Source: Candidatus Eiseniibacteriota bacterium (lineage in GTDB: Bacteria > Eisenbacteria > RBG-16-71-46 > DASYSL01). Taken from it: a stretch of 64,000 nt of DNA. This document shows, piece by piece, positions 2,305-59,374 of the stretch. The DNA is taken from positions 15,764 to 79,763 of the forward strand of contig JANPEF010000061.1 in the NCBI GenBank assembly GCA_031431875.1. The letters are read 5' to 3'. The notes under the pieces were generated by a model, which was given only the letters and a program-made list of their open reading frames with translations, made no database searches and was not told the origin of the DNA. Within the stretch, counting starts at the first letter, position 1; each line of letters starts with the position of its first letter. A program made the position numbers and the translations under genes.

Positions 2305-3989
2305 CGCCGGTGGCCCAGCACACCGAGCCCGCGCAGTGCCGACTCGAGGCGCGGCAGGCGGACGCGCGTCGTCCACGTCCGTGCCGGATCATCCTCGAGC
2401 CGCGTGAGCACCGCCTCGTAGACGCGCCCCATGCCCAGGGCCGGCGCAAGCGCGCGTTCGGCGCCGGGCGGCACGGCGGTGCGAGCCGCGGCGAACGCGG
2501 CGCGGGCGCGGCCGGCGAGGGCGCGGGCGACCCGGCGAAACGCAGGAGGCATGTGCGCGGCAGCCAGGTCGTCGAGGCCGAGGCCGGTGGGGCCGAGGTC
2601 GTCGGCAGGCACGTAGAGGCGGCCGACGCGCGCATCGGCGGCGACGTCGCGCAGCACGTTCGTGCGCTGGAGGGCGACGCCGAGCGCGATGGCAAAGGCG
2701 CGCGCATCCTCACGTGCGAAGACCGGAAGCGCGGCGAGCCCCGGGCCGCCGCCCACCTGGCGACAGTACTGTTCGAGATCGGCGTCGTTCACGATGGGCG
2801 GGGCGGCGGCGTCGGCGGCGAGCCCGTCGACGAGCCCGGTGAGGCCCTCGTGCAGCAGGCCGTCGAGCGGCGCGCCGAGTGTGGCCCAGGCGCGGGCGAC
2901 ACGGCGGGCCGCGAGCATGCGCGGCGCGCCGGCAGCGAGGGCTGCGACTTCGGCGCGGGCGGCGTCGACCGCGGCGCACGCGATCGCTGCGTCCGGTGCC
3001 TCGTCAACATCGTCGTCGAAGGCGCGGCATAGCGCATGAAGCGCGGCGAGCGCCTCGCGTCGCGGCGCCGGCAGGAGCAGGAACGCCGGGGCGAACGACG
3101 AGCCCGCGGGCCCGCCGGTTGCGCGTGCCCGCACCGCGCGGAGGGCGATGCGCGCGCGATCACCGCCGCCCAGGGAAGGGCGCGTGCGGAAGGCGCGGGG
3201 GCCGAGCGCGCGACTGCGCTCGAGAATCGTGCGGCCTCCGGCGTGCACGGCGGCGAGCCATGGGCCGAGTGCGCGAGGCGCGCTCATCACCAGCGGCGCG
3301 GCATCGTCGAACAAGCGCGCCGTGCGGGCGATCGCATAGGCAAGGGCGCGCTCGTCGCCCCAGCGGCCACGCTCCTCGCGCGGCAAGTAGCAACGCCCGC
3401 GCGGCTCGTCGCGGGAGAGGTCCTGCCAGTGATTGGCGAGCTGGAGCGCGGTGCACAGGCGATCGGAGCGCTCGGAGTTCTCGGGGTCGGTGTCGCCGGC
3501 AGCGGCAAGCACGAGGCGCCCGACCGGCTCGGCCGAGTCGCGGGAATACGACAGCAGATCGTCCCATGTGTCGTACGCGGGCTGGACCAGGTCGCGCTCG
3601 AACGCGTCGAGCAGGCGCGCGAAGAGGCTCGTGTCGAGGCCGAGCCCGGCGCGTGTTGCGGCGAGCGCCGCGAAGATCGCGTCATCGCCGTGCCAGCGGC
3701 CATCGGGACCAGGCGGGAGCGGTGCGGGCGCCTCGAGCCGGGCGCGCAGGGCGGCAAGAGCCGCGCGGCGTGCGGCGAGCGAGCCACCGCCGGGTTCGTC
3801 GGCGACGTCGTCGGCGCGGCGCGCGAATGCATAGAACGCGGCCAGGTGCGGGCGCATGGCGCGGGGGAGCAGCAGCGTGGCGACCGGGAAGTTCTCGGCG
3901 TGTGCGGCCGCACTGCGGCGACAGGCGTCGTAGGCCGCGGCGAGCGCGGCGGACGGCGCGGGGGACGGGACGACGGCATCGGGCGGCAC
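2301..3989 (-). CDS. hpnC/hpnD: Squalene/phytoene-synthase family, two tandem domains in one frame: HpnC-like (ENFPVA..LLP) followed by HpnD-like (FLLLPAPRREAL..CRAFDDDVDE); apparent hpnC-hpnD fusion
   Basis: ORF 2301..4181 (-), 626 aa, with no stop between the two isoprenoid-synthase halves. The proposed start is the GTG at 3989 (V65 of the ORF), chosen so the gene does not overlap the divergent peptidase gene at 4073; the true start is uncertain. A GTG at 3134 could be an internal HpnD restart. Confidence 0.6.
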   Translation of the reverse strand: MPPDAVVPSPAPSAALAAAYDACRRSAAAHAENFPVATLLLPRAMRPHLAAFYAFARRADDVADEPGGGSLAARRAALAALRARLEAPAPLPPGPDGRWHGDDAIFAALAATRAGLGLDTSLFARLLDAFERDLVQPAYDTWDDLLSYSRDSAEPVGRLVLAAAGDTDPENSERSDRLCTALQLANHWQDLSRDEPRGRCYLPREERGRWGDERALAYAIARTARLFDDAAPLVMSAPRALGPWLAAVHAGGRTILERSRALGPRAFRTRPSLGGGDRARIALRAVRARATGGPAGSSFAPAFLLLPAPRREALAALHALCRAFDDDVDEAPDAAIACAAVDAARAEVAALAAGAPRMLAARRVARAWATLGAPLDGLLHEGLTGLVDGLAADAAAPPIVNDADLEQYCRQVGGGPGLAALPVFAREDARAFAIALGVALQRTNVLRDVAADARVGRLYVPADDLGPTGLGLDDLAAAHMPPAFRRVARALAGRARAAFAAARTAVPPGAERALAPALGMGRVYEAVLTRLEDDPARTWTTRVRLPRLESALRGLGVLGHRR

Positions 3990-4072
3990 GGCCGCAGCGT
4001 AGCCGACACCCCCGGCCCCCGCAGCGGAAAATGCGCTGCCCCCGCCGGGAAGCCGTGCTAGCGTCCCGGCCC

Positions 4073-6067
4073 ATGAGCGCCCCCCGAGCCGTCCGCGTCC
4101 TCGCCACCGTCTTCGCTCTCGCCGGCGCCCTTGCCGCGCGGCCGATCCCGTCGTCCGCGGCCGATCCCGCAGCGGGCACACTGCGCGAGGAGGGCACGCG
4201 CGCGCGCCTGCCCCGGCCGCCGGCGCCGATCGTCGCCGCCTTGCCCGCCGGAGCCGACGTCGAGCGCTATCTCAACATCCGCTCGGCGGGGATGCCCGAC
4301 TGGTCCGCCTCGGGACGTCGCCTCGCGTTCCGGACGGCGATCACCGGGCAGAACCAGGTGTGGATGGTGGATCGCGCCGGCGCATGGCCGACGCAGGTCA
4401 CGTTCGGGACCGAACCGGTCGGCGCGTTCGCGTGGTCGCCGGTGGACGACGATCGCCTGATCTTCAGCCGCGACGTCGGTGGCAACGAGCGTCGCCAACT
4501 CTACCTTGCCGACGTGGCGACCGGAGCGGTCCGCCGCCTCACCACGCGCGACGACGTCATCCACAACTGGGGCGGCTGGTCGCGCGACGGCCGCCGCATC
4601 GCCTACACCGCGAACGAGCGCAACCAGGCGTTCTTCGACGTGTACGTGATGGACGTCGAGAGCGGCGTCGCACGGCGCATCCTCGAGCGCGATGGGGCGA
4701 TGTACGGATCGGGATTCACGCCGGACGGCACGCACTACCTCGCCGCCGAGATCCGCTCGAGCCAGGACATGGACCTGTGGCTGCTCGACGCGGACGGGAC
4801 GCCGGCGCCGCGACGTCTCACGCCGGAGGACAACGCCGCGGCCTACGGAGATGCGGCCTGGATGCCGGACGGAAAGAGCCTCCTGTTGATGGGCAACCGC
4901 GATCGCGAGTTCGCCAGCCGGGCCCGGCTCGATGTGGCGACCGGCGGGCTCGCTTACGCCGACTCGCTCGCCTGGGACCTCGAGGAACTCGCGCTGTCGG
5001 ACGACGGCCGGATGCTCGCGACCGTGGTCAACGAGGACGGCCGCGGGCGGCTCGTCGTGCGCGACCTGCGCCTGCGCAGCGCGGACCAGGCGATTCGTCT
5101 GCCCGAACTGCCCGACGGCACCGTGACCGATCCCGTCTGGTCGCGCGACGGCACCCGCCTGGCGTTCGCGCTCAGCGGCCCGCAGCACCCGTCGGATGTG
5201 TGGGTGTTCGATCGCACGGCGAGCACCGTGACGCGCTGGACCGACTCGTGGACCGCGGGCATTCCGCGCGCGACGTTCGCGGCCAGCCGGCTCGTGCACT
5301 TCGACTCGTTCGACGGGACGCGCATCGCCGGCTTCCTCTACCTGCCGCCCGGAACGAGCGGACCGGTGCCGATCGTGTTCAGCGTGCACGGCGGACCCGA
5401 GGAGCAGGCGAAGGCCGTGTTCTCGCCGCTCATCCAGTACTTCGTGCAGCGCGGCTTCGGTGTCTACCAGCCGAACGTGCGCGGATCGACCGGCTACGGG
5501 CGCTCGTTCGCGCGCCTCGACGATGTCGGGAAGCGCCTCGACTCGGTGAAGGACCTGACCGCGGCCGCGCAATGGCTGGTCGCCCAGGGAATCGCCGAGC
5601 CTGGCCGCATCGCGGTCAGCGGGGGATCGTATGGCGGGTACATGACCCTCGCCGCGCTCGCGTTCGATCCCGGGACGTGGGCGTGCGGGGTCGACATCGT
5701 CGGGATCTCGGACCTGCGCACGTTCATCGCCAACACCGGCGCCTGGCGCCGCAACCTGCGCGCCGCCGAGTATGGCGATCCCGACAAGGACGGCGCGGCG
5801 ATGGATGCCGCCTCGCCGATCCATCGCGTGGCCGACATCCGTGCGCCGCTCATGGTGATCCAGGGCGCAAACGATCCGCGCGTGCCGCAGTCCGAGGCCG
5901 ACCAGATGGTCGCGGCGTTGCGCGCCCGTGGCGTGACCGTCGACTACCTGCTCTATCCCGATGAGGGGCACGGCCTGGCCAAGCTCCCCAACCGCATCAC
6001 CGCCTACACGAAGATGGCCGATTTCTTCACCACCCACCTCAAGCCCGCGGTGTCGGCGACGCCCTGA
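4073..6067 (+). CDS. S9-family serine peptidase (prolyl oligopeptidase / acylaminoacyl-peptidase type) with N-terminal beta-propeller and signal peptide
   Basis: In frame within ORF 2879..6067; ATG at 4073 followed by signal peptide MSAPRAVRVLATVFALAGALAARP; WSPDG propeller repeats; C-terminal GGSYGGYM nucleophile elbow and the D and H catalytic residues. Confidence 0.8.
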   Translation: MSAPRAVRVLATVFALAGALAARPIPSSAADPAAGTLREEGTRARLPRPPAPIVAALPAGADVERYLNIRSAGMPDWSASGRRLAFRTAITGQNQVWMVDRAGAWPTQVTFGTEPVGAFAWSPVDDDRLIFSRDVGGNERRQLYLADVATGAVRRLTTRDDVIHNWGGWSRDGRRIAYTANERNQAFFDVYVMDVESGVARRILERDGAMYGSGFTPDGTHYLAAEIRSSQDMDLWLLDADGTPAPRRLTPEDNAAAYGDAAWMPDGKSLLLMGNRDREFASRARLDVATGGLAYADSLAWDLEELALSDDGRMLATVVNEDGRGRLVVRDLRLRSADQAIRLPELPDGTVTDPVWSRDGTRLAFALSGPQHPSDVWVFDRTASTVTRWTDSWTAGIPRATFAASRLVHFDSFDGTRIAGFLYLPPGTSGPVPIVFSVHGGPEEQAKAVFSPLIQYFVQRGFGVYQPNVRGSTGYGRSFARLDDVGKRLDSVKDLTAAAQWLVAQGIAEPGRIAVSGGSYGGYMTLAALAFDPGTWACGVDIVGISDLRTFIANTGAWRRNLRAAEYGDPDKDGAAMDAASPIHRVADIRAPLMVIQGANDPRVPQSEADQMVAALRARGVTVDYLLYPDEGHGLAKLPNRITAYTKMADFFTTHLKPAVSATP

Positions 6068-6163: not shown

Positions 6164-6199
6164 TGCGGACATGGTTCTCCCCGCGGAGGTCGCTCGTCC

Positions 6200-7876
6200 A
6201 TGAAGTCGTTCAGCCGGATCCTCCCGCTCCACGTCCTGCTTGCCGGCGCCATCGCGCCCGCTGCCGGGGCGCAGTGCACGTATCCGCTGATCACCAACGG
6301 CGCGACGGTGACCGCTTCGAGCCAGGTGGCCTCGGTGCGCTTCGCGACGCCGATCACTTCCTTCGTCGCCCTCGGCCTGCGCTCCGACGCCGGCAGCGAT
6401 CATTCCCTCGCCCTGTACGGCGCGACGGGCGGCGCGCCTGCGTGCGGCAGCGGACTTCTCGCCACGTCGAACACGCCGGCAGGCGTCGAGGTGCTCGTCG
6501 GCGACTACCGCCCGGGACACAACCCGACCGGTCCGCGCTTTGCGACGGGAACACGGACCAGCGGCACGGGCGGCATGACGTTCGAACTGGAGACCACCGC
6601 GCGCATCCTGGTCGCCGGCACGCCGCCCGAGTCGTCGCTCGTGGCACCGCCGGTGCTCGACGTCTACCAGACGTTCCTCGAGGCCGGCAGTTCCTACACG
6701 TTCAACCTGGCGAGTGCGGGACCCGATCTCATGGTGCTCGTCTTCCGCAACCCGGGAGCGAATCCGTTCTGGGCCGGTCGCGGCGCCCCGGAGATGCTCG
6801 CCAGCGCGAACGGCCCCACGCTGTTCACTGCACCCGCGTCGGACGACTACGCCCTGGTCGTGGTCAACGATGACGGGGCCGCCGGCACGTACACGCTCTG
6901 GGTCGAGCTGTGCCAGGAGCCCGATACGCTGCTGTCGACTGTGGCGCGCCCGGTGACGTATCCGTATCGCGACAAGCTCGCCATCGAGGACCTCTACTGG
7001 CAAGGCGTCGGCGTTCGCCCCGACGCGGGCTCGGATTGGAACCTCGCGCTCTACGACACGGCGCGCGGGGCACCGGAACCCATCTGCTTCGAGGGCCTGG
7101 TGACGTCGTCTTCGCGCACGAGCGGCGTGGACTTCGTCGTCGGTGACCTGTCGAGCGGACCGCTCAAGCCGTTCTACGTGCGCGAACTGCGCGCCGGGGG
7201 AGACGGTGGCGCCACGGTCGAGTGGGACGCGGGTCCCGACGAGATCGCGGTCGGGGACACGCTGAGCCCGATCGTCCGCACGACCGGCCCCGCGGACGTG
7301 CTCACGGTCTGGGACGCGTACCTGAATCCCGGCACGACCTACACCGTGCTGTTCTCGCCCTCCGGGAGTGCGGAGCTGCGCTGGTTCCTCTTCGCCAACC
7401 CGGCGCAGGGCCCCGGCGGGGAGCGCTGGTTCGCGCGCGACGAGGCGATCCTCACGGCCACGGGGAACGCGCTGGTGACGCCGACCACCCAGGGCTGGCA
7501 CGGACTGGTCGTGGTCAACGAGAACGGCGCGGCCGGTTCGTATTCGCTCGCGATCGCCGGGCTGCCCTACGTCGGTGTCCCGGACGGGGGCGTGCTGCGC
7601 AACGCGCTGGGGGCGATCCAGCCCAACCCGATGCGCACCCGCGCGACGATCGGCTTCACGCTTGCCCGCACCGCTCGCGTCACGATCGAGATCGTCGACG
7701 TGGCGGGGCGCATCGTCGCGCTGGTCGACGGCGGAATGCAGGAGGGGGGACCGGGCGGGCTGGCCTGGGACGGGCGCGATGTGCAGGGCAGCCGGGCCGG
7801 CCCAGGCGTGTACTTCGCGCGCCTGGTGGTCGACGGTGCGGCGATCGGAGCGGCGCGACTCGTCCTCCTCCGCTAG
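6200..7876 (+). CDS. Secreted protein with three PPC-like (pre-peptidase C-terminal) repeat domains and a FlgD-Ig / T9SS-type C-terminal sorting domain; no catalytic domain recognised
   Basis: Signal peptide MKSFSRILPLHVLLAGAIAPAAGA; three repeats ending ...DDYALVVVNDDGAAGTYTLWV or ...VVVNENGAAGSYSL; C-terminus PNPMRTRATIGFTLARTARVTIEIVDVAGRIVALVDGG...GVYFARLVVDGAAIGAARLVLLR matches the FlgD-like/Por-secretion CTD pattern. Confidence 0.7.
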   Translation: MKSFSRILPLHVLLAGAIAPAAGAQCTYPLITNGATVTASSQVASVRFATPITSFVALGLRSDAGSDHSLALYGATGGAPACGSGLLATSNTPAGVEVLVGDYRPGHNPTGPRFATGTRTSGTGGMTFELETTARILVAGTPPESSLVAPPVLDVYQTFLEAGSSYTFNLASAGPDLMVLVFRNPGANPFWAGRGAPEMLASANGPTLFTAPASDDYALVVVNDDGAAGTYTLWVELCQEPDTLLSTVARPVTYPYRDKLAIEDLYWQGVGVRPDAGSDWNLALYDTARGAPEPICFEGLVTSSSRTSGVDFVVGDLSSGPLKPFYVRELRAGGDGGATVEWDAGPDEIAVGDTLSPIVRTTGPADVLTVWDAYLNPGTTYTVLFSPSGSAELRWFLFANPAQGPGGERWFARDEAILTATGNALVTPTTQGWHGLVVVNENGAAGSYSLAIAGLPYVGVPDGGVLRNALGAIQPNPMRTRATIGFTLARTARVTIEIVDVAGRIVALVDGGMQEGGPGGLAWDGRDVQGSRAGPGVYFARLVVDGAAIGAARLVLLR

Positions 7877-7879
7877 ACT
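7874..7879 (+). promoter_or_regulatory. -10-like TAGACT 6 nt upstream of the ATG at 7886 (leaderless-type architecture)
   Basis: TAGACT at 7874-7879, GCGCGG, then ATG 7886; the same TAnnnT-N6/7-start layout recurs at 10590, 13962 (minus strand), 43609 and 51223. Confidence 0.3.
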
Positions 7880-7885
7880 GCGCGG

Positions 7886-8305
7886 ATGGACACGTACCGC
7901 CTCTGGGTTGCGATCACGCCCCGCTTTCGTGACACCGACGCCATGGGCCACGTCAACAACGCGGTCTACCTCACGTATTTCGAGGTCGCGCGCACCGCCT
8001 ACTGGACCGCGCTGACCGGCGATCCCGATTACCAGCGCGTCCCGTTCATCCTCGCCCACACGACGCTCGACTTCCGCTCGCCGGCACTCGTGCGCGAGGC
8101 ACTCGAGGTCGGCATCCGCGTCGAGCGCGTGGGCACCAAGTCCTTCGCCTGCGCCTACCGGATCGAGGAGGCGACGTCGCGGCGCCTGGTCTGCGAGGGC
8201 CGCTCCGTGCAGGTCATCTTCGATTACGCGAAGAACGAGAGCTACCCGGTGCCCCCCGAGCTGCGGGCCAGCCTGCGCGCCTTCGAGGGCTGTCCGGACC
8301 TGTAG
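7886..8305 (+). CDS. Acyl-CoA thioesterase, 4HBT/YbgC-like hotdog fold
   Basis: 139 aa; the RFRDTDAMGHVNNAVYLTYFEVAR motif is typical of YbgC/4HBT thioesterases. Confidence 0.75.
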   Translation: MDTYRLWVAITPRFRDTDAMGHVNNAVYLTYFEVARTAYWTALTGDPDYQRVPFILAHTTLDFRSPALVREALEVGIRVERVGTKSFACAYRIEEATSRRLVCEGRSVQVIFDYAKNESYPVPPELRASLRAFEGCPDL

Positions 8306-8385
8306 ACGCGCCCGCGCCGATCCGGTAGCCTCCCGCGGTCCGGGCCCAGGGCCCGGCCGACCACCATCCAATGGAAGGAACGCCG

Positions 8386-9500: not shown

Positions 9501-9511
9501 CGCGCGGTCGA

Positions 9512-9917: not shown

Positions 9918-10592
9918 GTGCCCCTCTTCACGATCGATCACTTCGCGCCTCCGGCGGTGGCGAAGGCGTGCCCGTCCCTCCAGGGCACCGCGCCGAGCAT
10001 CCAGATCAAGGACGTCAGCTTCGTTCCACCATCGATCCTCCTGCCGCAGACACTCCTGCGCATCACGCTGGCGAACGTGTACAACGGCAACCCACAGACC
10101 GGGGACCCCGCGAAGCGCTACTTCCTCGGGCGATTCCAGTTCGATCACGGGTTCTCGGTGATCGGTCCGACGACTCCGGGTGTCGATTGCAGCGGCTTCG
10201 AGGTTCCGCTCCGGTTCGACACGTACTGCACCAGCTACGTCGACACGCAGGGGATGGAATGGAGCTTCGGCCTCGGGGGCACTGGCACCGTGACCTCGAA
10301 GGGGGTGGAAACCTGCCTCCCGGTCCCGGCCGAGACCTCGACCAGCTCGTGCAGTAGTCCACCGACGGCCCCCGGGGGAGACACTCTCCCGGGGGCCGTT
10401 TCGTCATCGCGCGTTCGGGGGAAGATGACTGCGGCCACCAACCCGGGATGGTCTCAGTTACTCGCCCCCGGAACAGGCACTGCGACCATGAGGCGGACAT
10501 GGTCACACTCGCCTCTTCCAAGCAAGGTGACTGCGACCACCTGGGCTCACCCCCCCTCCGGCCCGATCCCGTGCCGCATCCCAATCTGGTAG
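9918..10592 (+). CDS. Hypothetical Cys/Thr/Ser-rich protein in the same frame as 9636..9851; possibly the 3' part of a disrupted gene or pseudogene
   Basis: Frame identical to 9636 (both 0 mod 3); the intervening translation GNATTNTVPDAWRFDAQGCQTG repeats the upstream motif DGTYDLRWDSCTG; atypical composition; the ORF reads through the second hairpin copy. Confidence 0.3.
   Translation: MPLFTIDHFAPPAVAKACPSLQGTAPSIQIKDVSFVPPSILLPQTLLRITLANVYNGNPQTGDPAKRYFLGRFQFDHGFSVIGPTTPGVDCSGFEVPLRFDTYCTSYVDTQGMEWSFGLGGTGTVTSKGVETCLPVPAETSTSSCSSPPTAPGGDTLPGAVSSSRVRGKMTAATNPGWSQLLAPGTGTATMRRTWSHSPLPSKVTATTWAHPPSGPIPCRIPIW
10372..10416 (+). repeat. Second copy of the GGCCCCCGGG...CCCGGGGGCC-GTTTC hairpin element
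   Basis: GGCCCCCGGGGGAGACACTCTCCCGGGGGCCGTTTCGTCATC; about 85% identical in the stem and 3' flank to the copy at 9512. Confidence 0.4.
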
Positions 10593-10601
10593 ATTCCCCT
10601 C

Positions 10602-11201
10602 GTGAAGGATTTCACGAGCCTCGCCCTCCTTTTCGTCGCCCTCCTCTTCCTCGTCGAGATCGCGCTCCTTGCGCGCTTCCTGCGCGCGCGCGGCCCTGCG
10701 CCCGGCCTTCGCTGGATCCTCGCTCCGCTCGTCGTCACGCTCGCATTCGCGCTGCCCGCCGCGTGGATTGCGCGCGCGGGCGGGCTCGCGCCCGGCCTGC
10801 CCGGAGCCGGCATGCCCTGGGAGGACGTGACCGATGCGACGCCGCGGGCGGAGTCCGCCGCCGCCGGTGAGCGCGCGTACCTCAACCGCTGCGCGCCGTG
10901 TCACCTGCCCGAGGGAAGTGGACTGCCGCCGTCGTATCCGCCACTCGTCGGCAGCGCCGTCGTCGCCGGTCCGGTCGACCTGCACGTCCGCTACGCGCTA
11001 TGGGGCAGTCGCGGCATCGCTCGACCACGCGCCGGTGCGGCGCAGATGCCGGGTTTCCATGGCGCGACCAGCGACGCGGAGCTCGCCGCGATCCTGACGT
11101 GGGAACGGAATGCGTGGGGGCATGACGCGGGGATCGTCCGGCCGTCGGACGTCGCGCGCGGGCGTGCCGCCGGCGCGGCCGAAGGGCTCGACCGCCCGTG
11201 A
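10602..11201 (+). CDS. Membrane-anchored monoheme c-type cytochrome (CxxCH = CAPCH)
   Basis: N-terminal transmembrane helices, CAPCH heme-binding motif, and a Met ligand region further downstream; GTG start 6 nt after a TAGATT hexamer; its stop overlaps the ctaA start (GTGA). Confidence 0.65.
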   Translation: MKDFTSLALLFVALLFLVEIALLARFLRARGPAPGLRWILAPLVVTLAFALPAAWIARAGGLAPGLPGAGMPWEDVTDATPRAESAAAGERAYLNRCAPCHLPEGSGLPPSYPPLVGSAVVAGPVDLHVRYALWGSRGIARPRAGAAQMPGFHGATSDAELAAILTWERNAWGHDAGIVRPSDVARGRAAGAAEGLDRP

Positions 11202-13362: not shown

Positions 13363-13955
13363 GGCGCTTGCAGCGTCCCCTGCACCCACTTGCGCAGCGC
13401 CACGATTCCGTCGTTGTCCTTGGCCGAGGTCGCGATCACGTCGATCTCCTCGCGCCAGGGCAGGAGCTTGCGCAGCTCGGCCAGCTTGCGCGCGGGGGCG
13501 CTGCGGTTCACGCGGTCGCACTTGGTGAACGCGAGCGCGAACGGCACGTCGTCCTCCAGCAGCCACGACAGCATCTCGAGGTCCGAGTCCTGCCACGGCA
13601 CGCTCACGTCGACCAGCTGGAACACCGCGGCGCGGCGCGACGGATCGCCCAGCAGGTCGCGGGCGGCGCGGGTGAACGTGCGGCGTTCCTTCTCGGGTCC
13701 GGCGGCGTAGCCGTAGCCGGGCAGATCGATCAGGTAGAAAGGCGGCGTCTTGTCCGACTCGAGCTCGAAGTAGACGAGCTGGCGCGTGCGGCCCGGCGTC
13801 TTGCTCGTGCGCGCGATCGCCTGGTTGGCGAAGCGATTGACGAGCGACGACTTGCCCACGTTCGAGCGCCCCGTGAAGGCGATTCCCGGACGCTCGTTCG
13901 GGCATGCGGCGGGGTCGAGAAACGAGCCGAGGAACTTCGTGCGGAGGATGCGCAT
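13338..13955 (-). CDS. engB: Ribosome-biogenesis GTPase EngB (YihA/YsxC)
   Basis: [11 protein letters not shown]...[12 protein letters not shown] (G1), DLPGYG (G3), TKCD (G4); 205 aa; TACCTT hexamer 7 nt upstream of the ATG on the coding strand. Confidence 0.8.
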
Positions 13956-14010
13956 GAAGCCCAAGGTAGCATGCCTTGACACCCGGCGACGGCCCGACGA
14001 ACATGCGCCC

Positions 14011-14523
14011 ATGAACGAGCCGCGCCCCGCCGATGCCGCGCCCGCGCCCCGGGTCGGCGTGATCATGGGCAGCCAGAGTGATCTCGAGACGATGGCGCCC
14101 GCCGTCGAGCTCCTGACCGCGCTTGCCGTGCCGCACGAAGTGCGCATCGTCTCGGCGCACCGCACCCCCGACTGGATGTTCGAGTACGCCTCGACGGCCG
14201 AGGCGCGCGGGCTCGCCGTGATCATCGCCGCCGCAGGCGGCGCGGCCCACCTGCCCGGGATGACCGCGGCGAAGACGATCCTGCCGGTGCTCGGCGTGCC
14301 CGTCGCCGCGACCGCGCTCGGCGGCGTCGACGCGTTCCTCTCCATCGTCCAGATGCCGAAGGGCGTGCCAGTCGGTACGCTTGCCATCGGCGCGCCCGGG
14401 GCGGCAAACGCGGCGCTGCTCGCGGCGCGCATCGTCGCCCTCGGCGATCCGGCGCTGCGCGAAAGACTGCGCGCATGGACCGCGGCTCGACGCGACGAGG
14501 TCCTCGGCGACTCGACGCCGTGA
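14011..14523 (+). CDS. purE: N5-carboxyaminoimidazole ribonucleotide mutase PurE
   Basis: [15 protein letters not shown]...HRTPD...[11 protein letters not shown], classic PurE motifs. Confidence 0.8.
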
Positions 14524-39306: not shown

Positions 39307-40667
39307 CAGTGAACGACTCCTTCCGGAATGGCCGCGCCGGGACCGGGGCCCGACGGCGGAGCGAACCCCGCGGCCGCATGTCTGGCGGACAGCGGAGTGA
39401 CGAACGGCAGGATGAGCAGGCACACCAGGCCGAAGGCCGCGTCGAACCCGAGGGTGAGAGGATACCCGAATCGCTCGATCGAGTGGCCCTGCCACCACGC
39501 GGCCATCGAGGAGGCCAGGTTGCACAGGGCCATGTACGCGGTGAACTGGGTGGCGGCCACGCGCGGCGTCGTGATGTCCATGTAGAGCGCGGTGCCCGCG
39601 CCGTACATGAGGCCCTGCGCGATGTAGTACGAGAGGCAGGCGGTCCAGAACGCGCTGATCGCCGCCGCCCCGATCGCCCCGCCGGCGAGCAAGAGTGCGA
39701 GGCAGACGCCGGGCACGGACATCAGGGCGACGAAGAGCGCGATCGTGCGGCGGCGGCCCAGGCGATCCGACAGCCAGCCGCCGACCACGCAGCCCAGCGC
39801 CCCGCAGAACGACGAAGCCATCGCCAGCGCGCCGATGGCGCCGTCGTCCATGCCCAGCTCGACCGCGAGGTTCGATTGCAGCGCCAGGCCGAGGCCCATG
39901 GCGCCCATCGGCAGGAGCGCCAGCAGCACGCCGAACAGGGCGCCGCGCGAGCCGGTGAAGGCGTGCCACGACGCGACGAGGAACTCGCGCATGCGCGCGC
40001 CCGCCGCCGCCAGCGCCGCCGCAGGGCCGGCGCCGGGGCCGCCCGCGTGCGCCGCCGCCACCGCAGCCGTCTCGCGCAGGCGCAGCGAGACCACGATCCC
40101 GATCAGCGCGACCGCTCCGGCAACGACGAGGAACGTGGCGCGGAACGGCATGGCCGCGGTCAGCATGAGCACGCCGCCGCCGCCCAGTGCGGTGCCCACC
40201 GCTTGTCCCGCGAACATGACGCCGTTCGCCGTCCCACGTTCCTCGACGGGCAGCACGTTGCAGGCGAGCGCGTCGATCGCGACGTCCTGCGTCGCGGCGA
40301 AGGCGTTGTGCAGGATCAGGAGCCCGGTGAAGAGTGCGAGCTGCTGCGCGGGATCGACGGTCATGGCCACCAGCAGCGTGACGACCATGAGGCCCTGCGC
40401 CAGCACGACCCAGAATCGCCGCGGTCCCCAGCGCGCCACGGTCAGCGAGTCGACGATCGGCCCCACCGCCCACTTGAACGCCCACGGCAGGTAGAGCGCA
40501 GCGACGTAGGTCCCGATCTCCGCGGGACCCAGGCCCAGTCGGCGCATCTGTGTGGCCACGGCGACCACCGCGAAGCCCGAGGGCAGGCCCTCACTGACAT
40601 AGAGGAGGAAGAACGAGACGAGGCGGGCGCGACGCGTGCCGAGAGGGTCGGACGGAAGGAGGCGCAT
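39306..40667 (-). CDS. MFS transporter, PucC/BCD family, paralog B
   Basis: ~45% identical to paralog A by eye (LYLPWAFKWAVGPIVDS, DRLGRRRT); AAGGTG Shine-Dalgarno before ATG 40667. Confidence 0.7.
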   Translation of the reverse strand: MRLLPSDPLGTRRARLVSFFLLYVSEGLPSGFAVVAVATQMRRLGLGPAEIGTYVAALYLPWAFKWAVGPIVDSLTVARWGPRRFWVVLAQGLMVVTLLVAMTVDPAQQLALFTGLLILHNAFAATQDVAIDALACNVLPVEERGTANGVMFAGQAVGTALGGGGVLMLTAAMPFRATFLVVAGAVALIGIVVSLRLRETAAVAAAHAGGPGAGPAAALAAAGARMREFLVASWHAFTGSRGALFGVLLALLPMGAMGLGLALQSNLAVELGMDDGAIGALAMASSFCGALGCVVGGWLSDRLGRRRTIALFVALMSVPGVCLALLLAGGAIGAAAISAFWTACLSYYIAQGLMYGAGTALYMDITTPRVAATQFTAYMALCNLASSMAAWWQGHSIERFGYPLTLGFDAAFGLVCLLILPFVTPLSARHAAAGFAPPSGPGPGAAIPEGVVH

Positions 40668-40858
40668 GGGCGCGCACCTTAGCACAGCCGGCGTCCGATT
40701 CTCCCGACGAGCGTCCGGCACTCCCGACAGGGCGGCGGGCACCGCGTGCAGCGCCTCGATCCGGGACTTCCCGCGAACCCACGCGAATTCGCGGGCTGGA
40801 GGGACCGCGACGCGCTGGCATGGCGCGTGCATCCCTCCCCGTGCAGGGGAGGTGGACC

Positions 40859-43520: not shown

Positions 43521-43620
43521 CGGACGACCTCCGGACTGGGATGGGACACGGGTTCTGGGCCTCACCCGGGATACGGACCCCGCCGGCGATCGGATGACCC
43601 GCGGATGCTAGGATGCGGCC

Positions 43621-44685
43621 ATGTTCGTGCTCGGCATCGAAACCTCCTGCGACGACACGGCCGCCGCCGTGGTCGAACACGGCCCCCGGCCCCCCCGGCT
43701 GGTCTCCAGCATCGTCGCGGTGCAGGACGTGCACCGCGAGTTCGGCGGCGTCGTGCCCGAGCTGGCCTCGCGCGCCCACCTCGAGCTGCTGCCCGGCGCG
43801 GTCGAGCGGGCGCTGGCCGAGGCCGAGCTCGATTTCGACGACATCGACGGCATCGCCGTGACGCGCGCACCGGGGCTCCTCGGCGCGTTGCTCGTCGGCG
43901 TGAGTTACGCCAAGGCGCTGGCCGTCGCGCTGGAGAAGCCGTTCGTCGGCGTCAATCACATCGAGGCCCACCTGCTCGCGCCGCTGCTCGAGGGTGCCGT
44001 GTTCGAGTTTCCGGCGGTCGGCGCGGTCGTCTCGGGCGGACACTCCGAGATCTTCCTCGTGCACGCGCTCGGCGCCTACACGCTGATCGGCACGACGCGC
44101 GACGACGCGATCGGCGAGGCCTTCGACAAGGCCGCGAAGTTGCTGGGGCTGGGCTTTCCGGGCGGCCCCGTCGTCGACCGGCTCGCCGCCGTGGGCGACG
44201 CCGGGCGGCATCCGCTCCCGCGCGGGATGAGCGGCTCGGGCGACCTCGACCTCTCGTACTCCGGGCTCAAGGCGGCGACGCGACGGCTGATCGAGGGCCC
44301 GGCGGGTGCGCTGTTGCGCGCCGCGCCCGAGTCGGACGAGGCGGCGCAGCTGCGCGCCGACATCTGCGCGTCGTTCCAGGTCGCCGCGGTCGATCCGCTC
44401 CTGTCGAAGCTCGAGACCGCCGCGCGCCGCCACGGCGCCCGCTCGCTCGTCGTCGGCGGGGGCGTGGCGTGCAACTCGCGGCTGCGCGAAGGCCTCGCCG
44501 GGATCGGCACGCGGCTGGGCATTCCCGCTTTCCGGCCGAGCCCCGCGCTGTGCGCCGACAACGCGGCGATGATCGCGCTCGTCGGCGGCTTCCGGCTGGC
44601 GCGCGGTGAGCGCGACGGACTCGACCTCGAGCCCGTGCCGAGCCTCGACGAGAGCGGCATGCTCTCCGTGAAGGCCCCCGCGTAA
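43621..44685 (+). CDS. tsaD: tRNA N6-adenosine threonylcarbamoyltransferase TsaD (Kae1/Gcp)
   Basis: MFVLGIETSCDDTAAAVV...HIEAHL...GGGVACN; a TAGGAT hexamer lies 6 nt upstream of the ATG. Confidence 0.85.
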   Translation: MFVLGIETSCDDTAAAVVEHGPRPPRLVSSIVAVQDVHREFGGVVPELASRAHLELLPGAVERALAEAELDFDDIDGIAVTRAPGLLGALLVGVSYAKALAVALEKPFVGVNHIEAHLLAPLLEGAVFEFPAVGAVVSGGHSEIFLVHALGAYTLIGTTRDDAIGEAFDKAAKLLGLGFPGGPVVDRLAAVGDAGRHPLPRGMSGSGDLDLSYSGLKAATRRLIEGPAGALLRAAPESDEAAQLRADICASFQVAAVDPLLSKLETAARRHGARSLVVGGGVACNSRLREGLAGIGTRLGIPAFRPSPALCADNAAMIALVGGFRLARGERDGLDLEPVPSLDESGMLSVKAPA

Positions 44686-51136: not shown

Positions 51137-51222
51137 GCGCACCTGGCGCACGGGCCGCCCGCAGCGGCGGCCGTGTCGTGGAAGACGGGGCTGCAGCCGT
51201 GGAAACCGGGGCCGCCGCAGCG

Positions 51223-51228
51223 TAGACT
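51223..51228 (+). promoter_or_regulatory. -10-like TAGACT 6 nt upstream of the priA GTG start (leaderless-type architecture)
   Basis: TAGACT at 51223-51228, CCGCGC, then GTG 51235. Confidence 0.3.
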
Positions 51229-51234
51229 CCGCGC

Positions 51235-53379
51235 GTGAGCTTCGTCCGCGTCGCCTTCCCCGTCCCCGTTCGCCAGACCTTCCTCTATTCCGTTCCACCC
51301 GAGCTCGAGTCGCGGGCGCGACCCGGCGCCGAGGTGCGTTGCCCATTTGGCGCGCGCGAGCGCCGGGGGTTCGTCGTCGAGCCCGCGCGCGAAGCCGATC
51401 GCCACGGGGTGAAGGCGATCCTCGGGGTGGTCGGCGACGACGTCGTCTTCCCGCCCGACCTGCTGCGCCTGTGTTCGTGGATCGCCGACTACTACCTGGC
51501 GCCCATCGGGCGCGTGCTCGCCGCGGCGCTGCCGGGCGGGCTCGAGGGTTTTGGCGGCAGCCGCGCTCGCAAGCAGGCGGGGGCCGGCGGCGGCGCGCAC
51601 ACCGCGCTCGTCGCGCCCGGTGCGATCGCACCCGTCGGCGATCCGGGAGGGACCGGGACGCACAAGCTCACCGCGGCCCAGCACGCCGCCGGCGAGGCGA
51701 TCGCCCGCGCGCTCGACGCACGCGCCTACGCCGCCTTCCTGCTCCACGGCGTCACCGGCAGCGGAAAGACGGAGGTCTACCTCGCCGCGGCGCGTGCCAC
51801 GATTGCGGGCGGCCGCCGCGTGCTCGTGCTCGTGCCCGAGGTCGCGCTCGCCCACCAGATCGTGCACGCCTTCCGCGCCCGCTTCGGCGACCGCGTCGGC
51901 GTGCTCCACTCCTACCTGGCACTCGGCGAGCGCCGCGCCACGTGGGAGCGCGCCCGCCGCGGCGGGCTCGACGTCGTCGTCGGCGCGCGCTCGGCCGTGT
52001 TCGCGCCGCTGCCCGGCCTGGGGCTGGTGCTGGTCGACGAGGAGCACGACTCGACCTACAAGCAGAGCGAGCAGGTTCGCTACCACGGTCGCGACACGGC
52101 GCTGGTGCGCGCGCGGCTGGCCAACGCGGTCGCCGTGCTCGGCTCGGCGACGCCCAGTCTCGAGTCGTTCGCCAACGTCGAGCGCGGCAAGTACCGCCGC
52201 CTCGAATTGCCGGAGCGTGTCGACGGCCGCCCGCTCCCGGTGATCGAGCTGGTCGACCTCAACGAGGTCGCGCGTGAGGCAGCACCGGTGGCGTCCGCGG
52301 TCGCTGCGGCACCTCGTCGTCCCCGTCGCGCGCCCGGGCTGTTCACGCCGCCGCTGCTCGATGCGCTCGCCGCGACGCTCTCGCGCAAGGAACAGGCGCT
52401 CGTGTTCCTCAACCGGCGCGGGCACACGCGCATCGTCGAGTGTGAGGACTGCGGCCACGTCGAGTCCTGCCCGGCGTGCGACGTGGCGCTCACCTACCAT
52501 CGCAGCGACGAGCGGTTCCGCTGCCACTACTGCGCCTTCGAGCGACCGGCGACCGGCGCGTGCCCGAAGTGCGCGAGCCCGTTCTTCCGCCACAAGGGCT
52601 CGGGCACGCAGCGTGCCGAGAAGGAACTCGCCACGCACTTTCCGCAGGCGCGCGTCCTGCGCCTCGACTCGGACAGCGCCCGGCCGCGCGGCGAACAGGC
52701 GCGCATCCTCGGTGCGTTCGGCCGCGGCGAGGCCGAAATTCTGCTGGGCACGCAGATGATCGCCAAGGGCCTCGACTTTCACGGCGTCACGCTGGTCGGT
52801 GTCGTCTCGGCCGACGGCTCGCTGCACATGCCCGACTTCCGCGCCGCCGAGCGCACGTTCCAGACGCTGGTCCAGGTGGCCGGCCGCGCCGGCCGCGGCA
52901 CGCGCCCGGGGCGCGTCGTCGCCCAGACGCGCGCCGCCGATCACTACGCGCTGGTGGCCGCGCAGCAGCACGACTTCGCCGCGTTCGTGGCGCGCGAGAG
53001 CATCCATCGCCGCGACTTCGGCTACCCGCCGTACGGGCGGCTGGTCGCTTTCGGGATCGCCGGCGTCGACGAGGAAAAGGTGGTCGACGCAGCGACGCGC
53101 GTGGCGGCGCGGGCGCGGATCGCGGCGAGCGCCGGAACCGCGACCGGCGCTGCCGGAACCGCGGGCGAGATGCAGGTGCTCGGCCCGGCGCCGGCGCCGC
53201 TGGCGCGCCTGCGCAGCAAGCACCGCTGGCGGGTGACGCTCAAGGCCGCCGACGCGGCGTCGCTCCACGCCGCCGCGCGCGCCACCCTGGACGGGCTCGA
53301 GCACCCGGCGACGGCGGCGGATCGCCTGCCTGCCGGGGTGGCGTTGACCGTGGATGTCGATCCGTACGACCTGCTGTGA
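51235..53379 (+). CDS. priA: Primosomal protein N' (PriA helicase)
   Basis: Walker A GVTGSGKTEVY; DEEHD; C-terminal CxxC zinc fingers (CEDCGHVESCPACDVAL...CHYCAF...CPKCAS). Confidence 0.85.
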   Translation: MSFVRVAFPVPVRQTFLYSVPPELESRARPGAEVRCPFGARERRGFVVEPAREADRHGVKAILGVVGDDVVFPPDLLRLCSWIADYYLAPIGRVLAAALPGGLEGFGGSRARKQAGAGGGAHTALVAPGAIAPVGDPGGTGTHKLTAAQHAAGEAIARALDARAYAAFLLHGVTGSGKTEVYLAAARATIAGGRRVLVLVPEVALAHQIVHAFRARFGDRVGVLHSYLALGERRATWERARRGGLDVVVGARSAVFAPLPGLGLVLVDEEHDSTYKQSEQVRYHGRDTALVRARLANAVAVLGSATPSLESFANVERGKYRRLELPERVDGRPLPVIELVDLNEVAREAAPVASAVAAAPRRPRRAPGLFTPPLLDALAATLSRKEQALVFLNRRGHTRIVECEDCGHVESCPACDVALTYHRSDERFRCHYCAFERPATGACPKCASPFFRHKGSGTQRAEKELATHFPQARVLRLDSDSARPRGEQARILGAFGRGEAEILLGTQMIAKGLDFHGVTLVGVVSADGSLHMPDFRAAERTFQTLVQVAGRAGRGTRPGRVVAQTRAADHYALVAAQQHDFAAFVARESIHRRDFGYPPYGRLVAFGIAGVDEEKVVDAATRVAARARIAASAGTATGAAGTAGEMQVLGPAPAPLARLRSKHRWRVTLKAADAASLHAAARATLDGLEHPATAADRLPAGVALTVDVDPYDLL

Positions 53380-58500: not shown

Positions 58501-58576
58501 CAATCACTTGCGCGCACGGGGTGGGGGGTGCATGCGGCTTGTGACCCCCCGCCCGGTGTGCTAGTTTCCGGCTCGT

Positions 58577-59374
58577 ATGGATTGGACGGCGTCGGATCCC
58601 ACCGGCGTGTGGGCCCGTTGGCGCACCCGGACGCCGGACCTGCGCGCACAGATTGCAGACCTGCTGCAGCGGGAGCTCACGCTGCGCGGGCAGTCGCGTG
58701 TCGTCCTCGGTCTCTCGGGCGGGCTCGACTCCACGGTTGCCGCCACGCTCTGCGTCGACGCGCTTGGCGCACCAAACGTGCTCGGCGTGCTGCTCCCGCA
58801 CCGATCCTCCGACACGCAGGCACTGTCGTCCGCCCAGGGCATCGTCAACACGCTGGGCATCACCACCCGGCGCGTCAACGTGAGCCCGATGGTCGACGCG
58901 TACTTCGCGAACTTCCCGGATGCCAGCCGCGAGCGGCGGGCCGTACGCCTGGCCTGGGAGCGCCTGGCGATCCTGCACGACTTCGGTGCCCATTACGGCG
59001 GCATGGTGCTGCAGATCGTCAATCGCTCGGACCTGGCGCTCGATTTTGGCCCGGAGCCAAGGCTCCCGGCGCTTGCGGTGCGTCCGTTCGAGGGGGTCTA
59101 CAAGTCGCAGCTCCGCCTGCTCGGGCAGTCGCTCGAGATTTCGCAAATGGTGCTCGATCGCCGGCCGTCGCTCGACTCCTATCCCGGTCAGGCCGACGAG
59201 TCCGAACTGGGCGCCAGCTACGAGACCATCGACCCGGTGCTCGAGTGGCTGCTCGATCACAAGGGGACGCCCGAAAAGGTGGTGAGTCTCGGCTATCCCG
59301 CAGAGGTCGTGGAGCGGGTGCAGGCGCGACTTGACCGGCGTCGCGACAGCCCGCTGCCCGTCGCGCTGGCGTGA
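58577..59374 (+). CDS. nadE: NH3-dependent NAD+ synthetase NadE
   Basis: PP-loop SGGLDS; 265 aa. Confidence 0.8.
   Translation: MDWTASDPTGVWARWRTRTPDLRAQIADLLQRELTLRGQSRVVLGLSGGLDSTVAATLCVDALGAPNVLGVLLPHRSSDTQALSSAQGIVNTLGITTRRVNVSPMVDAYFANFPDASRERRAVRLAWERLAILHDFGAHYGGMVLQIVNRSDLALDFGPEPRLPALAVRPFEGVYKSQLRLLGQSLEISQMVLDRRPSLDSYPGQADESELGASYETIDPVLEWLLDHKGTPEKVVSLGYPAEVVERVQARLDRRRDSPLPVALA

Follow-up and report, generated by a model that had tools for sequence, protein, structure and literature searches.

The window analysed here, a stretch of 64,000 nucleotides, comes from the 71% GC genome of an uncultured soil bacterium of the candidate phylum Eisenbacteria (Candidatus Eisenbacteria or Eiseniibacteriota). 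A preliminary description had noted that five of its genes, encoding a thioesterase, cytochrome c, EngB, TsaD and PriA, begin 6 or 7 nt after a hexamer of the form TAnnnT. Inspection of the sequence finds all five sites in place, and Pfam confirms the identity of all five genes. Five further sites of the same type precede the genes for squalene/phytoene synthase (SQS), an S9 peptidase, an MFS transporter, NAD synthase and PurE (Table 1). This leaderless-type layout is thus found at about 10 of the 56 genes in the window, about one in six. The SQS and S9 peptidase genes are divergent, with an 83-nt gap between them, and the cytochrome c gene is the first of a cyt c-ctaA-ctaB operon according to sequence and Pfam. 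We read operon position manually, from gaps and gene orientation: nine of the ten sites lie at divergent junctions or behind gaps of at least 76 nt, the exception being the thioesterase, and about 9 of the roughly 31 first-in-operon genes carry the layout.

Table 1. Positions in the window of the ten leaderless-type gene starts and of the elements in front of them.
Gene	Coordinates	Strand	-35-like hexamer	-10 region	Spacer to start	Start codon
Squalene/phytoene synthase (SQS)	3987..4001	-	none	TACGCT 4001-3996	6 nt	GTG 3989
S9 peptidase	4056..4075	+		TGcTAGCGT, hexamer 4059-4064	8 nt	ATG 4073
Thioesterase (4HBT)	7874..7888	+	none	TAGACT 7874-7879, no TGn	gcgcgg, 6 nt	ATG 7886
Cytochrome c	10587..10616	+		TGgTAGATT, hexamer TAGATT 10590-10595	cccctc, 6 nt	GTG 10602
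engB	13953..13971	-		TGcTACCTT, hexamer TACCTT 13968-13963	gggcttc, 7 nt	ATG 13955
purE, divergent from engB	13976..14013	+	TTGACA 13976-13981, 17 nt	GAACAT 13999-14004	6 nt	ATG 14011
MFS transporter	40665..40684	-		TGcTAAGGT, hexamer 40681-40676	8 nt	ATG 40667
tsaD	43606..43623	+		TGcTAGGAT, hexamer 43609-43614	gcggcc, 6 nt	ATG 43621
priA	51200..51237	+	TGGAAA 51200-51205, 17 nt	TAGACT 51223-51228	ccgcgc, 6 nt	GTG 51235
NAD synthase (nadE)	58539..58579	+	TTGTGA 58539-58544, 17 nt	TGcTAGTTT, hexamer 58562-58567	9 nt	ATG 58577

Our results show that the occurrence of TAnnnT before start codons is a real pattern, beyond chance. We define the spacing d as the number of nucleotides between the -10 hexamer and the start codon and measured it for 56 curated starts in the window. 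The leaderless-type starts among them were chosen without regard to the hexamer: a codon model gave eight, and for engB and purE the start was set by where the Pfam domains lie and by aligning orthologues. TANNNT occurs only 82 times in the window on both strands. Nine of the 56 starts have it at a spacing of 5-9, where 0.88 are expected (Poisson P 4e-7), and five have it at a spacing of exactly 6, where 0.18 are expected (P 1e-6); the expectation was taken from spacings of 10-60 at the same starts. In the raw count for the window there are 8 matches at 6 nt against about 0.5 per bin. The distance distribution that the preliminary description had proposed as a check is, within the window, not flat: it has a sharp peak at 6 nt. 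Among 187 noncoding "shadow" ORFs of at least 100 amino acids only two have the hexamer at d=5-9 and none at d=6, compared with 9 of the 56 real starts (Fisher P 4e-5).

The peak is also present in related loci. Our comparison set consists of contigs and loci from other Candidatus Eisenbacteria, referred to by L numbers, and here eight sites fall at d=6 and five at d=7, with further cases in additional loci. The starts used for these relatives coincide with a public-pipeline call or a tblastn match in 14 of 15 cases, and in 5 of 5 cases in the additional set. A metagenome scan with CtaB returned 80 loci, most of them from other phyla at 45-52% identity; the useful ones were L030, L039 and L067, and the remainder served as a negative control. 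Across 357 kb of high-GC DNA from other phyla the identical scan gives a flat distribution without a spacing peak.

The hexamers resemble bacterial -10 boxes in more than their spacing. Six of the nine leaderless-spaced hexamers follow the extended -10 motif TGn, compared with 4 of the 73 found elsewhere in the window (Fisher P 4e-5), and TGNTANNNT lies 6-9 nt before the ORF start at 6 of its 10 sites in the window; for the relatives the count is 8 of 12. A -35-like hexamer at a distance of 17 nt accompanies three of the ten sites (purE, nadE and priA), and at the other seven a recognisable -35 (at least 4/6 matches) is absent; the SQS and thioesterase sites have neither TGn nor -35. The purE site combines leaderless-type spacing and a perfect -35 with a -10 box that is not TAnnnT. 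A scan for the E. coli consensus (TTGACA-N17-TATAAT, at least 4/6 per hexamer and 9/12 overall) found no sites in positions 3500-16000 and 40000-59500. We regard this result as uninformative rather than negative, because the threshold asks too much of GC-rich -10 boxes, which miss a 4/6 match to TATAAT; the boxes in the window match it at just 3-4 positions. Rfam and tRNA scans of the window gave no matches and hence offer no known RNA gene to explain the "orphan" TGcTAnnnT sites.

At none of the ten leaderless-type starts is there a Shine-Dalgarno (SD) core, defined as GGAG or GAGG within -18..-4, compared with 32 of the 46 other starts, a figure that is partly circular since the presence of an SD was a criterion for some start calls. 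The absence of an SD at the TAnnnT-type starts had been part of the preliminary description, as had GGAGG-type SD sequences elsewhere, and these are indeed found at ino1 (61025), pepN (25266) and tmk (63234). Most of the genes without the leaderless-type layout have either a GGAGG-type SD or an overlapping stop and start that couples them to the gene before. This division between starts also supports the earlier suggestion that the organism probably uses both modes of initiation side by side. The same type of hexamer lies 36-110 nt upstream of SD-led genes at 6158, 9585, 32210 and 63899. Two TAGACT copies previously listed at leadered distances are where they were said to be, the one at 9585 lying 45 nt before the ATG at 9636 and the one at 20175 lying 71 nt before the ATG at 20252.

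In orthologous loci the T in position 1, the A in position 2, the T in position 6 and the length of the spacer are conserved, whereas variation is seen in positions 3-5 and in the spacer sequence. These footprints cover four lineages for engB, five for tsaD, three to five for cytochrome c, five loci for the MFS transporter, three for SQS, four for purE and three for priA, and the TG extension is retained among the orthologues of engB, the MFS transporter, cytochrome c and tsaD. Orthologues of engB read TGcTAGGTT-N7-ATG (L039, L113) and TGcTACCCT-N7-ATG (L111), while purE reads TTGACA-N17/18-(GAACAT/CACGAT/GACGAT)-N6-ATG in the same three loci. For SQS we find TACGCT-N6-GTG in L113 and TACGCT-N7-GTG in L110; in the latter the S9 peptidase has TGgTAGTCT-N6-GTG at its public-pipeline start (2140), and this start and the one called for SQS are just 39 nt apart. 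The MFS transporter has TGcTAAGGT-N8 in L006, TGcTACCGT-N8 in L118 and L120, and TGaTACCTT-N8 in L120. In tsaD the spacer of L006 differs at five of six bases and is still 6 nt long, and other relatives have TAGGAT-N6 (L119), TACCCT-N6 (L120) and CATCAT-N6 (L118). The tsaD hexamer TAGGAT contains AGGA and could be read as an SD. This reading is ruled out by the orthologues, which have TACCCT or CATCAT at equal spacing, so AGGA is not what is conserved. The priA arrangement TGGAA(A/T)-N17-TAGACT-N6-GTG is kept in L004 and L006 although the sequence between the two boxes has diverged; it is lost in L118, where TAGTCT lies about 52 nt upstream. The NAD synthase site is identical in L004, a locus too close to be informative.

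The assigned start codons are, judged by alignments and orthologue lengths, correct. Residue 1 of TsaD aligns with residue 1 of the solved chains 6nak, 3zet and 4ydu, and residue 1 of EngB with residue 1 of B. subtilis YsxC (1sul). Residue 3 of PriA aligns with residue 23 of the solved chain 6dcr_A, in our reading the third native residue behind a tag of about 20 residues. All three proteins therefore align with solved homologues from residue 1-3. For the other genes, the starts fit the lengths of orthologues and the public gene calls. Thioesterase orthologues of 139 amino acids predominate among the 120 best matches. The AIRC domain of PurE begins at residue 89 of a longer ORF, and PurE of L111 has 170 amino acids.

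The cytochrome c start deserves separate mention. Its GTG lies inside a palindrome, CGTGAAggatTTCACG (10601-10616), that resembles the operator of the CRP/FNR family, TGTGA-N6-TCACA: the window has cGTGA-AGGATT-TCACg, and L030 and L067 have perfect TGTGA-N6-TCACA. The palindrome is present once in the window, with a chance expectation of 0.6. Two further relatives have TGgTAGAGT-N7-GTGAAGGAATTCAC (L113) and TGgTAGGGT-N7-GTGAAGGATTTCAC (L116). An RNA hairpin was also considered. Its folding energy of -3.3 to -4.8 kcal/mol is no better than that of shuffled sequences, and we prefer to read the palindrome as a DNA operator. The start codon sits in a conserved CRP-like palindrome that is a candidate operator. 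The site given in the preliminary description is present, with two qualifications: the GTG is part of this palindrome, and in L030 and L067, which keep both hexamer and palindrome, the ORF is in a different frame and opens about 30 nt further downstream.

Taken together, these observations are very probably explained by sigma-70-type promoters that give rise to leaderless or nearly leaderless mRNAs in a genome that also contains SD-led genes. The promoters would be recognised by the housekeeping sigma factor. Their -10 consensus is TAnnnT, often extended by TGc, and at the first gene of a transcription unit 6-9 nt separate it from the ATG or GTG. RNA polymerase would start at the start codon where the spacing is 6-7 nt and 1-3 nt before it where the spacing is 8-9 nt; for NAD synthase the predicted leader is about 2-3 nt. 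The resulting mRNA would have no room for an SD sequence, and the ribosome would bind directly to the start codon at the 5' end. We infer both the positions of transcription start, from geometry alone, and the mode of translation at these starts. The earlier proposal that these are -10 elements from which transcription would start no more than about 1 nt away from the start codon is supported, and all its predictions at the level of sequence hold.

One could argue that the pattern stems from chance and ascertainment. If a called start is the first start codon after an in-frame TAG, then TAGnnT-N6-start needs only one extra T. Indeed, four of the five hexamers first described open with a TAG in frame with the start, and this TAG is hence at the same time the stop codon delimiting the ORF; at 7874 this TAG is the stop of the upstream gene. 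There are also five internal in-frame cases of TAC-NNT-N6-[AG]TG among 988 internal ATG/GTG codons. However, the enrichment (Poisson P 1e-6 to 4e-7) and that of TGn are significant, orthologues conserve hexamers that do not begin with TAG (TACCTT, TACCCT, TACGCT) as well as out-of-frame spacings of 7-8 nt, and neither the shadow ORFs nor the DNA from other phyla reproduce the peak. Because of the shadow-ORF control and the conservation data the in-frame stop fails as an explanation of the whole pattern, and chance is barely credible. Alternatively, the -10 boxes could be real and the true starts lie further downstream, in which case the mRNAs would be leadered and the starts mis-assigned. The downstream cytochrome c ORFs of L030 and L067 fit this view, as does the L113 thioesterase, whose SD-led ATG follows a TACCTT at a distance of about 40 nt. 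We nevertheless consider it quite unlikely, given the alignments of TsaD, EngB and PriA and the predominant length of the thioesterase orthologues; in addition, cytochrome c in the window has no in-frame ATG, GTG or TTG ahead of its membrane helix, and there is no SD core near any alternative start. Even less likely is a role of TAnnnT in the RNA, where it would lie in a longer 5' UTR and serve as a non-SD signal for ribosome binding. GeneMarkS-2 reports non-SD motifs close to starts in bacteria of the Fibrobacteres-Chlorobi-Bacteroidetes (FCB) group (PMC6028130). The invariant T1, A2 and T6, the TGn and the -35 hexamers TTGACA and TGGAAA at 17 nt are, by contrast, DNA-level features of sigma-70 promoters; the same type of hexamer also occurs well upstream of SD-led genes, and the sites are found at operon-first genes and not at internal ones.

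The thioesterase is the weakest of the leaderless cases. Its TAGACT was described correctly, but it is the least secure member of the set: the first three bases (7874-7876) are the stop codon of the co-directional upstream gene (6200..7876), the gap is 9 nt, and only close relatives keep the layout. For this gene it is a serious, if not the likelier, possibility that the two genes are co-transcribed and the ribosome reinitiates at ATG 7886 after terminating at the TAG, TAGACT then being a stop codon followed by chance bases. The short gap and the lack of an SD, TGn and -35 all fit with reinitiation. So do L111, where an ATGA overlap couples the two genes, and L110, where a 16-nt gap contains no hexamer; in L113 the layout is absent too, and there is a GGAG SD. 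In L116 and L117 (85% amino acid identity), however, the upstream gene ends with TGA and TAGTCT-gcgcgg-ATG is nevertheless present further downstream, which argues that hexamer and 6-nt spacer are kept independently of the stop codon. An internal promoter and reinitiation could also coexist.

For leaderless genes, a -10 box 6-9 nt before the start is the signature described in the literature (PMC3160421, PMC6028130, PMC3898074, PMC12340547). The pattern matches that of Actinobacteria and Deinococcus-Thermus; it is a known architecture in a new lineage and not a new mechanism. In Actinobacteria (M. tuberculosis, Streptomyces, Corynebacterium; "group C" of GeneMarkS-2), TANNNT lies about 6-8 nt before the ATG or GTG of operon-first genes that have no SD and a weak or absent -35, with SD-led genes alongside. 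Leaderless genes there make up about 25-50% of operons (PMC3898074, PMC6028130), to be compared with the roughly 9 of about 31 counted manually in the window. Our case differs in belonging to Candidatus Eisenbacteria and in the frequency of TGn: the motif precedes 6 of 9 hexamers here, whereas in M. tuberculosis only 7% of the TANNNT promoters have it (PMC3898074). ORFs of Deinococcus-Thermus (D. deserti, D. radiodurans) likewise have one of two alternative motifs in the 20 nt ahead of them, TANNNT at 6-7 bp or GGAG, and T1, A2 and T6 are near-invariant across orthologues (PMC12340547, PMC4007540). The fraction is higher there, at about a third of the genes or, counted as mRNAs, 47-60%, and the Deinococcus-Thermus case has been verified experimentally, whereas we infer the one in Eisenbacteria. 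The "TA-like signal" of Zheng et al. [quoted passage not shown] That survey found it in Acidobacteria (13%) and in delta-proteobacteria (16%) as well; it reported little TG extension in high-GC groups, in contrast to this window, and is older than the Eisenbacteria genomes (PMC3160421). As in extended -10 promoters (TGnTATAAT), TG lies one base upstream of the hexamer and the -35 is missing at the S9 peptidase, cytochrome c, engB, MFS transporter and tsaD sites, but the hexamers of these putative promoters have a GC-rich core (TAGGAT, TACCTT and similar). We found no report in the literature of a leaderless promoter signature for the Eisenbacteria lineage.

Combining these results, we tentatively suggest, at slightly less than an even chance, that Eisenbacteria may be previously unrecognised heavy users of leaderless genes (about 30% of operons), mostly with extended -10 boxes TGc-TAnnnT and no -35, that the mode of initiation may turn over fast between close relatives, and that the cytochrome c operon may carry a CRP/FNR-like operator in its first codons. 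If so, one and the same orthologue would be leaderless, SD-led or stop-start coupled depending on the member of the group, as for the thioesterase, priA and cytochrome c, and at cytochrome c a single DNA element would bring together promoter-proximal operator, transcription start and start codon. Where a genome has leaderless genes, gene finders that assume SD sequences put starts in the wrong place. Recognition of the "group C" pattern in metagenome-assembled genomes (MAGs) of Eisenbacteria would improve start calls and promoter maps for this uncultured soil phylum. It would also add a lineage beyond Actinobacteria and Deinococcus-Thermus that mixes leaderless and SD-led initiation, and the aligned orthologues would provide natural examples of a single gene switching between leaderless, leadered and coupled expression.

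Our results show that -10-type hexamers, often extended, stand at a fixed 6–9 nt from the starts of operon-first genes. All five arrangements of a TAnnnT hexamer, a short spacer, and a start codon that the preliminary description had read as leaderless-type promoters were found when the sequence was re-read, and Pfam agrees with the gene names given to them. Five sites of the same layout can be added: SQS, S9 peptidase, MFS, NAD synthase, and purE. The window has a G+C content of 71% and contains 82 TANNNT hexamers on both strands. We counted the spacing between the end of each TANNNT in the window and any ATG or GTG 3′ of it with which a GC3-rich ORF of 100 codons or more begins. The count peaks at spacing 6, with 8 cases versus about 0.5 per bin elsewhere. 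Among 56 gene starts, curated with a codon-usage model first and then with Pfam and orthologues, 9 carry TANNNT at spacing 5–9 (0.88 expected; P ~4e-7) and 5 at spacing 6 (0.18 expected; P ~1e-6), expected counts being derived from spacings 10–60.

An in-frame TAG opens four of the five hexamers described earlier, and the same TAG is the stop codon that bounds the ORF. We therefore checked 187 noncoding "shadow" ORFs: the motif occurs at spacing 6 in none of them and at spacing 5–9 in two (Fisher P 4e-5). The same scan of 357 kb from 26 high-GC loci of other phyla yields a flat histogram without a peak. The spacing peak is not created by the method. Across 988 internal ATG/GTG codons, in-frame TAC-NNT-N6-[AG]TG occurs at five, versus zero to two at other in-phase spacings. 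All five cases contain Tyr codons and none carries the extended -10 trinucleotide TGn; they are probably background, due to chance or codon structure. Some may also be internal promoters or alternative starts.

The hexamers are positionally conserved and mutually exclusive with Shine-Dalgarno (SD) sequences. GGAG or GAGG lies within -18 to -4 at 32 of the 46 other starts and at none of the ten sites, which include the five for which a missing SD had been reported. SD-led genes had been said to coexist with them; ino1, pepN, and tmk are indeed among the 32. Gaps and gene orientation were read by hand: upstream of nine of the ten sites there is a divergent junction or a gap of at least 76 nt, and about 9 of some 31 first-in-operon genes are of the leaderless type.

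At these sites, 6 of the 9 TAnnnT hexamers have TGn immediately 5′ of them, compared with 4 of the 73 others in the window (Fisher P 4e-5). The total of TGNTANNNT in the window is not enriched (10 vs. 7.4 expected); its placement is, with 6/10 copies in the window and 8/12 in relatives 6–9 nt before an ORF start. Only purE, nadE, and priA have a -35-like hexamer at 17 nt. Most of the sites that lack one carry TGn, as extended -10 promoters should. Hexamers of the same type also occur at leadered distances before SD-led genes; one of these promoters, about 110 nt 5′ of the gene at 32325, is near-canonical. Evidently, the main sigma factor of the organism can recognize -35 and -10 boxes like those of E. 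coli. In 3500–16000 and 40000–59500, a scan with the strict E. coli consensus detects none of these sites, because their -10 cores are GC-rich.

Both leadered TAGACT hexamers named previously are present. The one at 9585 lies directly past a strong intrinsic terminator (14-bp stem, T-rich tail) 3′ of the second rotamase gene; between this hexamer and ATG 9636 is a leader of 45 nt, which contains an AGAGG SD. The ORF reaching 10357, tested as the longer ORF 9536–10357, has no Pfam match; the related contig L116 lacks an ORF corresponding to 9636–10357, and its rotamase to cytochrome c distance is 93 nt. The other lies 71 nt 5′ of ATG 20252, the start of a large amidohydrolase gene that is leadered but SD-less, no SD-like sequence being found in cccccggtccttgcgagtgcccATGATG before the start.

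Coordinates of the features (positions are those of the window unless a related contig, L030 to L118, is named; Nx, spacing in nt)
Feature	Element	Position (strand)	Basis or context	Form in relatives
Thioesterase (4HBT)	TAGACT-gcgcgg-ATG	7886 (+)	Sequence, Pfam	
Cytochrome c	TAGATT-cccctc-GTG	10602 (+)	Sequence, Pfam	TGgTAG(ATT/AGT/GGT)-N6/7-GTG
engB (EngB)	TACCTT-gggcttc-ATG	13955 (-)	Sequence, Pfam	TGcTA(CCT/GGT/CCC)T-N7-ATG, four lineages
tsaD (TsaD)	TAGGAT-gcggcc-ATG	43621 (+)	Sequence, Pfam	TGcTAGGAT-N6 in three (5/6 spacer bases differ in one); two more lineages with TACCCT-N6 and CATCAT-N6
priA (PriA)	TAGACT-ccgcgc-GTG	51235 (+)	Sequence, Pfam	TGGAA(A/T)-N17-TAGACT-N6-GTG, three, inter-box spacer divergent
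Squalene/phytoene synthase (SQS)	TACGCT-N6-GTG	3989 (-)	Spacing scan	TACGCT-N6/7-GTG, three
S9 peptidase, divergent from SQS	TGcTAGCGT-N8-ATG	4073 (+)	Spacing scan	TGgTAGTCT-N6-GTG in L110, 39 nt from called SQS start
MFS transporter	TGcTAAGGT-N8-ATG	40667 (-)	Spacing scan	TG(c/a)TA(AGG/CCG/CCT)T-N8-ATG, five loci
NAD synthase (nadE)	TTGTGA-N17-TGcTAGTTT-N9-ATG	58577 (+)	Spacing scan	
purE, divergent from engB	TTGACA-N17-GAACAT-N6-ATG	14011 (+)	Perfect -35, weaker -10	TTGACA-N17/18-nAnnAT-N6-ATG, four
Back-to-back promoters		3987–4075; 13953–14013	SQS/S9 peptidase; engB/purE	
Leadered, SD-led gene	TACAAT	6158		
Leadered, SD-led gene	TAGACT	9585–9638 (with leader and ATG)	Past terminator	
Leadered, SD-led gene	TTGACA-N17-TATGCT	32187–32215		
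Leadered, SD-led gene	TGcTATTCT	63899		
Leadered, SD-less gene	TAGACT	20175		
Terminator		9522–9553		
Internal cases	TAC-NNT-N6-[AG]TG	2756 (-), 4514 (+), 27726 (+), 41786 (-), 54631 (+)		
Palindrome	CGTGAA-ggat-TTCACG	10601–10616	Cytochrome c start	L030 300–315; L067 1445–1460; cytochrome c starts of L113 (6233) and L116 (1753)
Palindrome GTG frame			Cytochrome c locus	L030 301–333; L067 1446–1475
Downstream cytochrome c start				TTG 330 (L030); ATG 1473 (L067)
Extended -10 matches	TGCTAGACT; TGCTAGGCT	33227–33235 (-); 34437–34445 (+)	Region ~33040–35500	
Tandem pairs		8386–9500; 37912–40667; 46178–50694	Rotamases; MFS; sensor kinases	

Across syntenic contigs with 63–96% protein identity, T1, A2, T6, and the spacer length are kept, and positions 3–5 and the bases of the spacer vary. 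Such a pattern is to be expected if a -10 element has a fixed distance to the start point. Reading the AGGA inside the tsaD hexamer as an SD is ruled out by the TACCCT and CATCAT orthologue variants. In relatives, the starts adjoining the hexamers are public-pipeline calls or tblastn matches (14/15 in one listing, 5/5 in another); priA is leadered in L118. Residue 1 of TsaD aligns with residue 1 of the solved TsaD chains 6nak, 3zet, and 4ydu, and residue 1 of EngB with that of B. subtilis YsxC. For PriA, the alignment pairs residue 3 with residue 23 of chain 6dcr_A; we take the latter to be native residue 3 behind a tag of about 20 residues. The thioesterase length of 139 aa is found in most of its 120 best homologues, and no alternative start precedes the membrane helix in the cytochrome c of the window.

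One could also argue that the thioesterase, and this site only, is translated by termination-reinitiation, which is a serious alternative there. The co-directional upstream gene, 9 nt away, has the TAG of the thioesterase hexamer as its stop codon, and the site has neither TGn nor a -35. In L116 and L117 (85% identity), the upstream gene stops with TGA, yet TAGTCT-gcgcgg-ATG is kept further downstream. Hence, the hexamer is retained independently of the stop. At the same locus the hexamer is absent in L110, the genes overlap by ATGA in L111, and the L113 gene is SD-led with TACCTT about 40 nt upstream.

The cytochrome c GTG sits in the first half of a palindrome that occurs once in the window. 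In the form (C/T)GTGA-N6-TCAC(G/A), it lies directly 3′ of the cytochrome c-ctaA-ctaB promoter, and relatives have TGTGA-N6-TCACA. Its half-sites match CRP-type TGTGA/TCACA and its RNA hairpin is weak; a CRP/FNR-type operator is more likely than an RNA hairpin. Such a putative CRP/FNR-family operator may overlap the transcription start. The frame opened by the palindrome GTG ends after 9–10 codons in L030 and L067; there, the cytochrome c ORF begins in a different frame about 30 nt further downstream, with no obvious SD before its TTG or ATG. The promoter is therefore conserved, and the leaderless start looks lineage-specific. Depending on the lineage, the same promoter seems to drive either a leaderless gene or one with a short leader.

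Two pairs of leaderless-type promoters stand back to back. The starts of engB and purE are separated by 55 nt, and a few bases lie between the purE -35 and the engB -10 of the opposite strand; for the starts of SQS and S9 peptidase, the separation is 83 nt in the window and 39 nt in L110 (public gene calls). Adjacent genes form tandem pairs at three places: two PPIC-type rotamase genes (~69% nucleotide identity), two MFS-type genes, and an apparent pair of GAF/HisKA/HD sensor kinase genes (second gene scanned here, first gene inferred from relatives). Of the MFS-type genes, the upstream copy, scanned here, is leaderless-type, and the downstream copy, MFS in relatives, is SD-led. Two further extended -10 matches have no convincing gene start 6–9 nt downstream. 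The region around them has a weak coding signal, a slightly lower G+C content, and no Rfam or tRNA matches. Unannotated small genes or RNAs, or antisense transcripts, could be transcribed from these two matches.

In sigma-70 geometry, the -10 hexamer covers -12 to -7, and a hexamer there therefore places the transcription start at or near the start codon. At a spacing of 6–7 nt, the first transcribed base would be the A or G that opens the start codon, and at 8–9 nt transcription would begin 1–3 nt upstream. The resulting mRNA would be translated without SD pairing.

The PriA protein is 88–96% identical to those of MAGs labelled Candidatus Eisenbacteria, and homologues of the thioesterase and TsaD carry the label Candidatus Eiseniibacteriota; both names denote a candidate phylum. 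We found no report in the literature searched that links Eisenbacteria to leaderless genes. Bacterial leaderless genes have this layout as their published signature, with TANNNT about 12 bp (from the first T) 5′ of the start (PMC3160421). In the GeneMarkS-2 "group C," a Pribnow box lies 6–8 nt from the starts of about 25–50% of operons (PMC6028130), and TSS-verified leaderless cases exist in M. tuberculosis (PMC3898074) and Deinococcus (PMC4007540, PMC12340547). What differs is the lineage and, compared with M. tuberculosis, the share of TGn (6/9 here, 7% there; PMC3898074). The leaderless-type feature is real, statistically solid, and evolutionarily conserved, and its sequence supports the interpretation as leaderless-type promoters.
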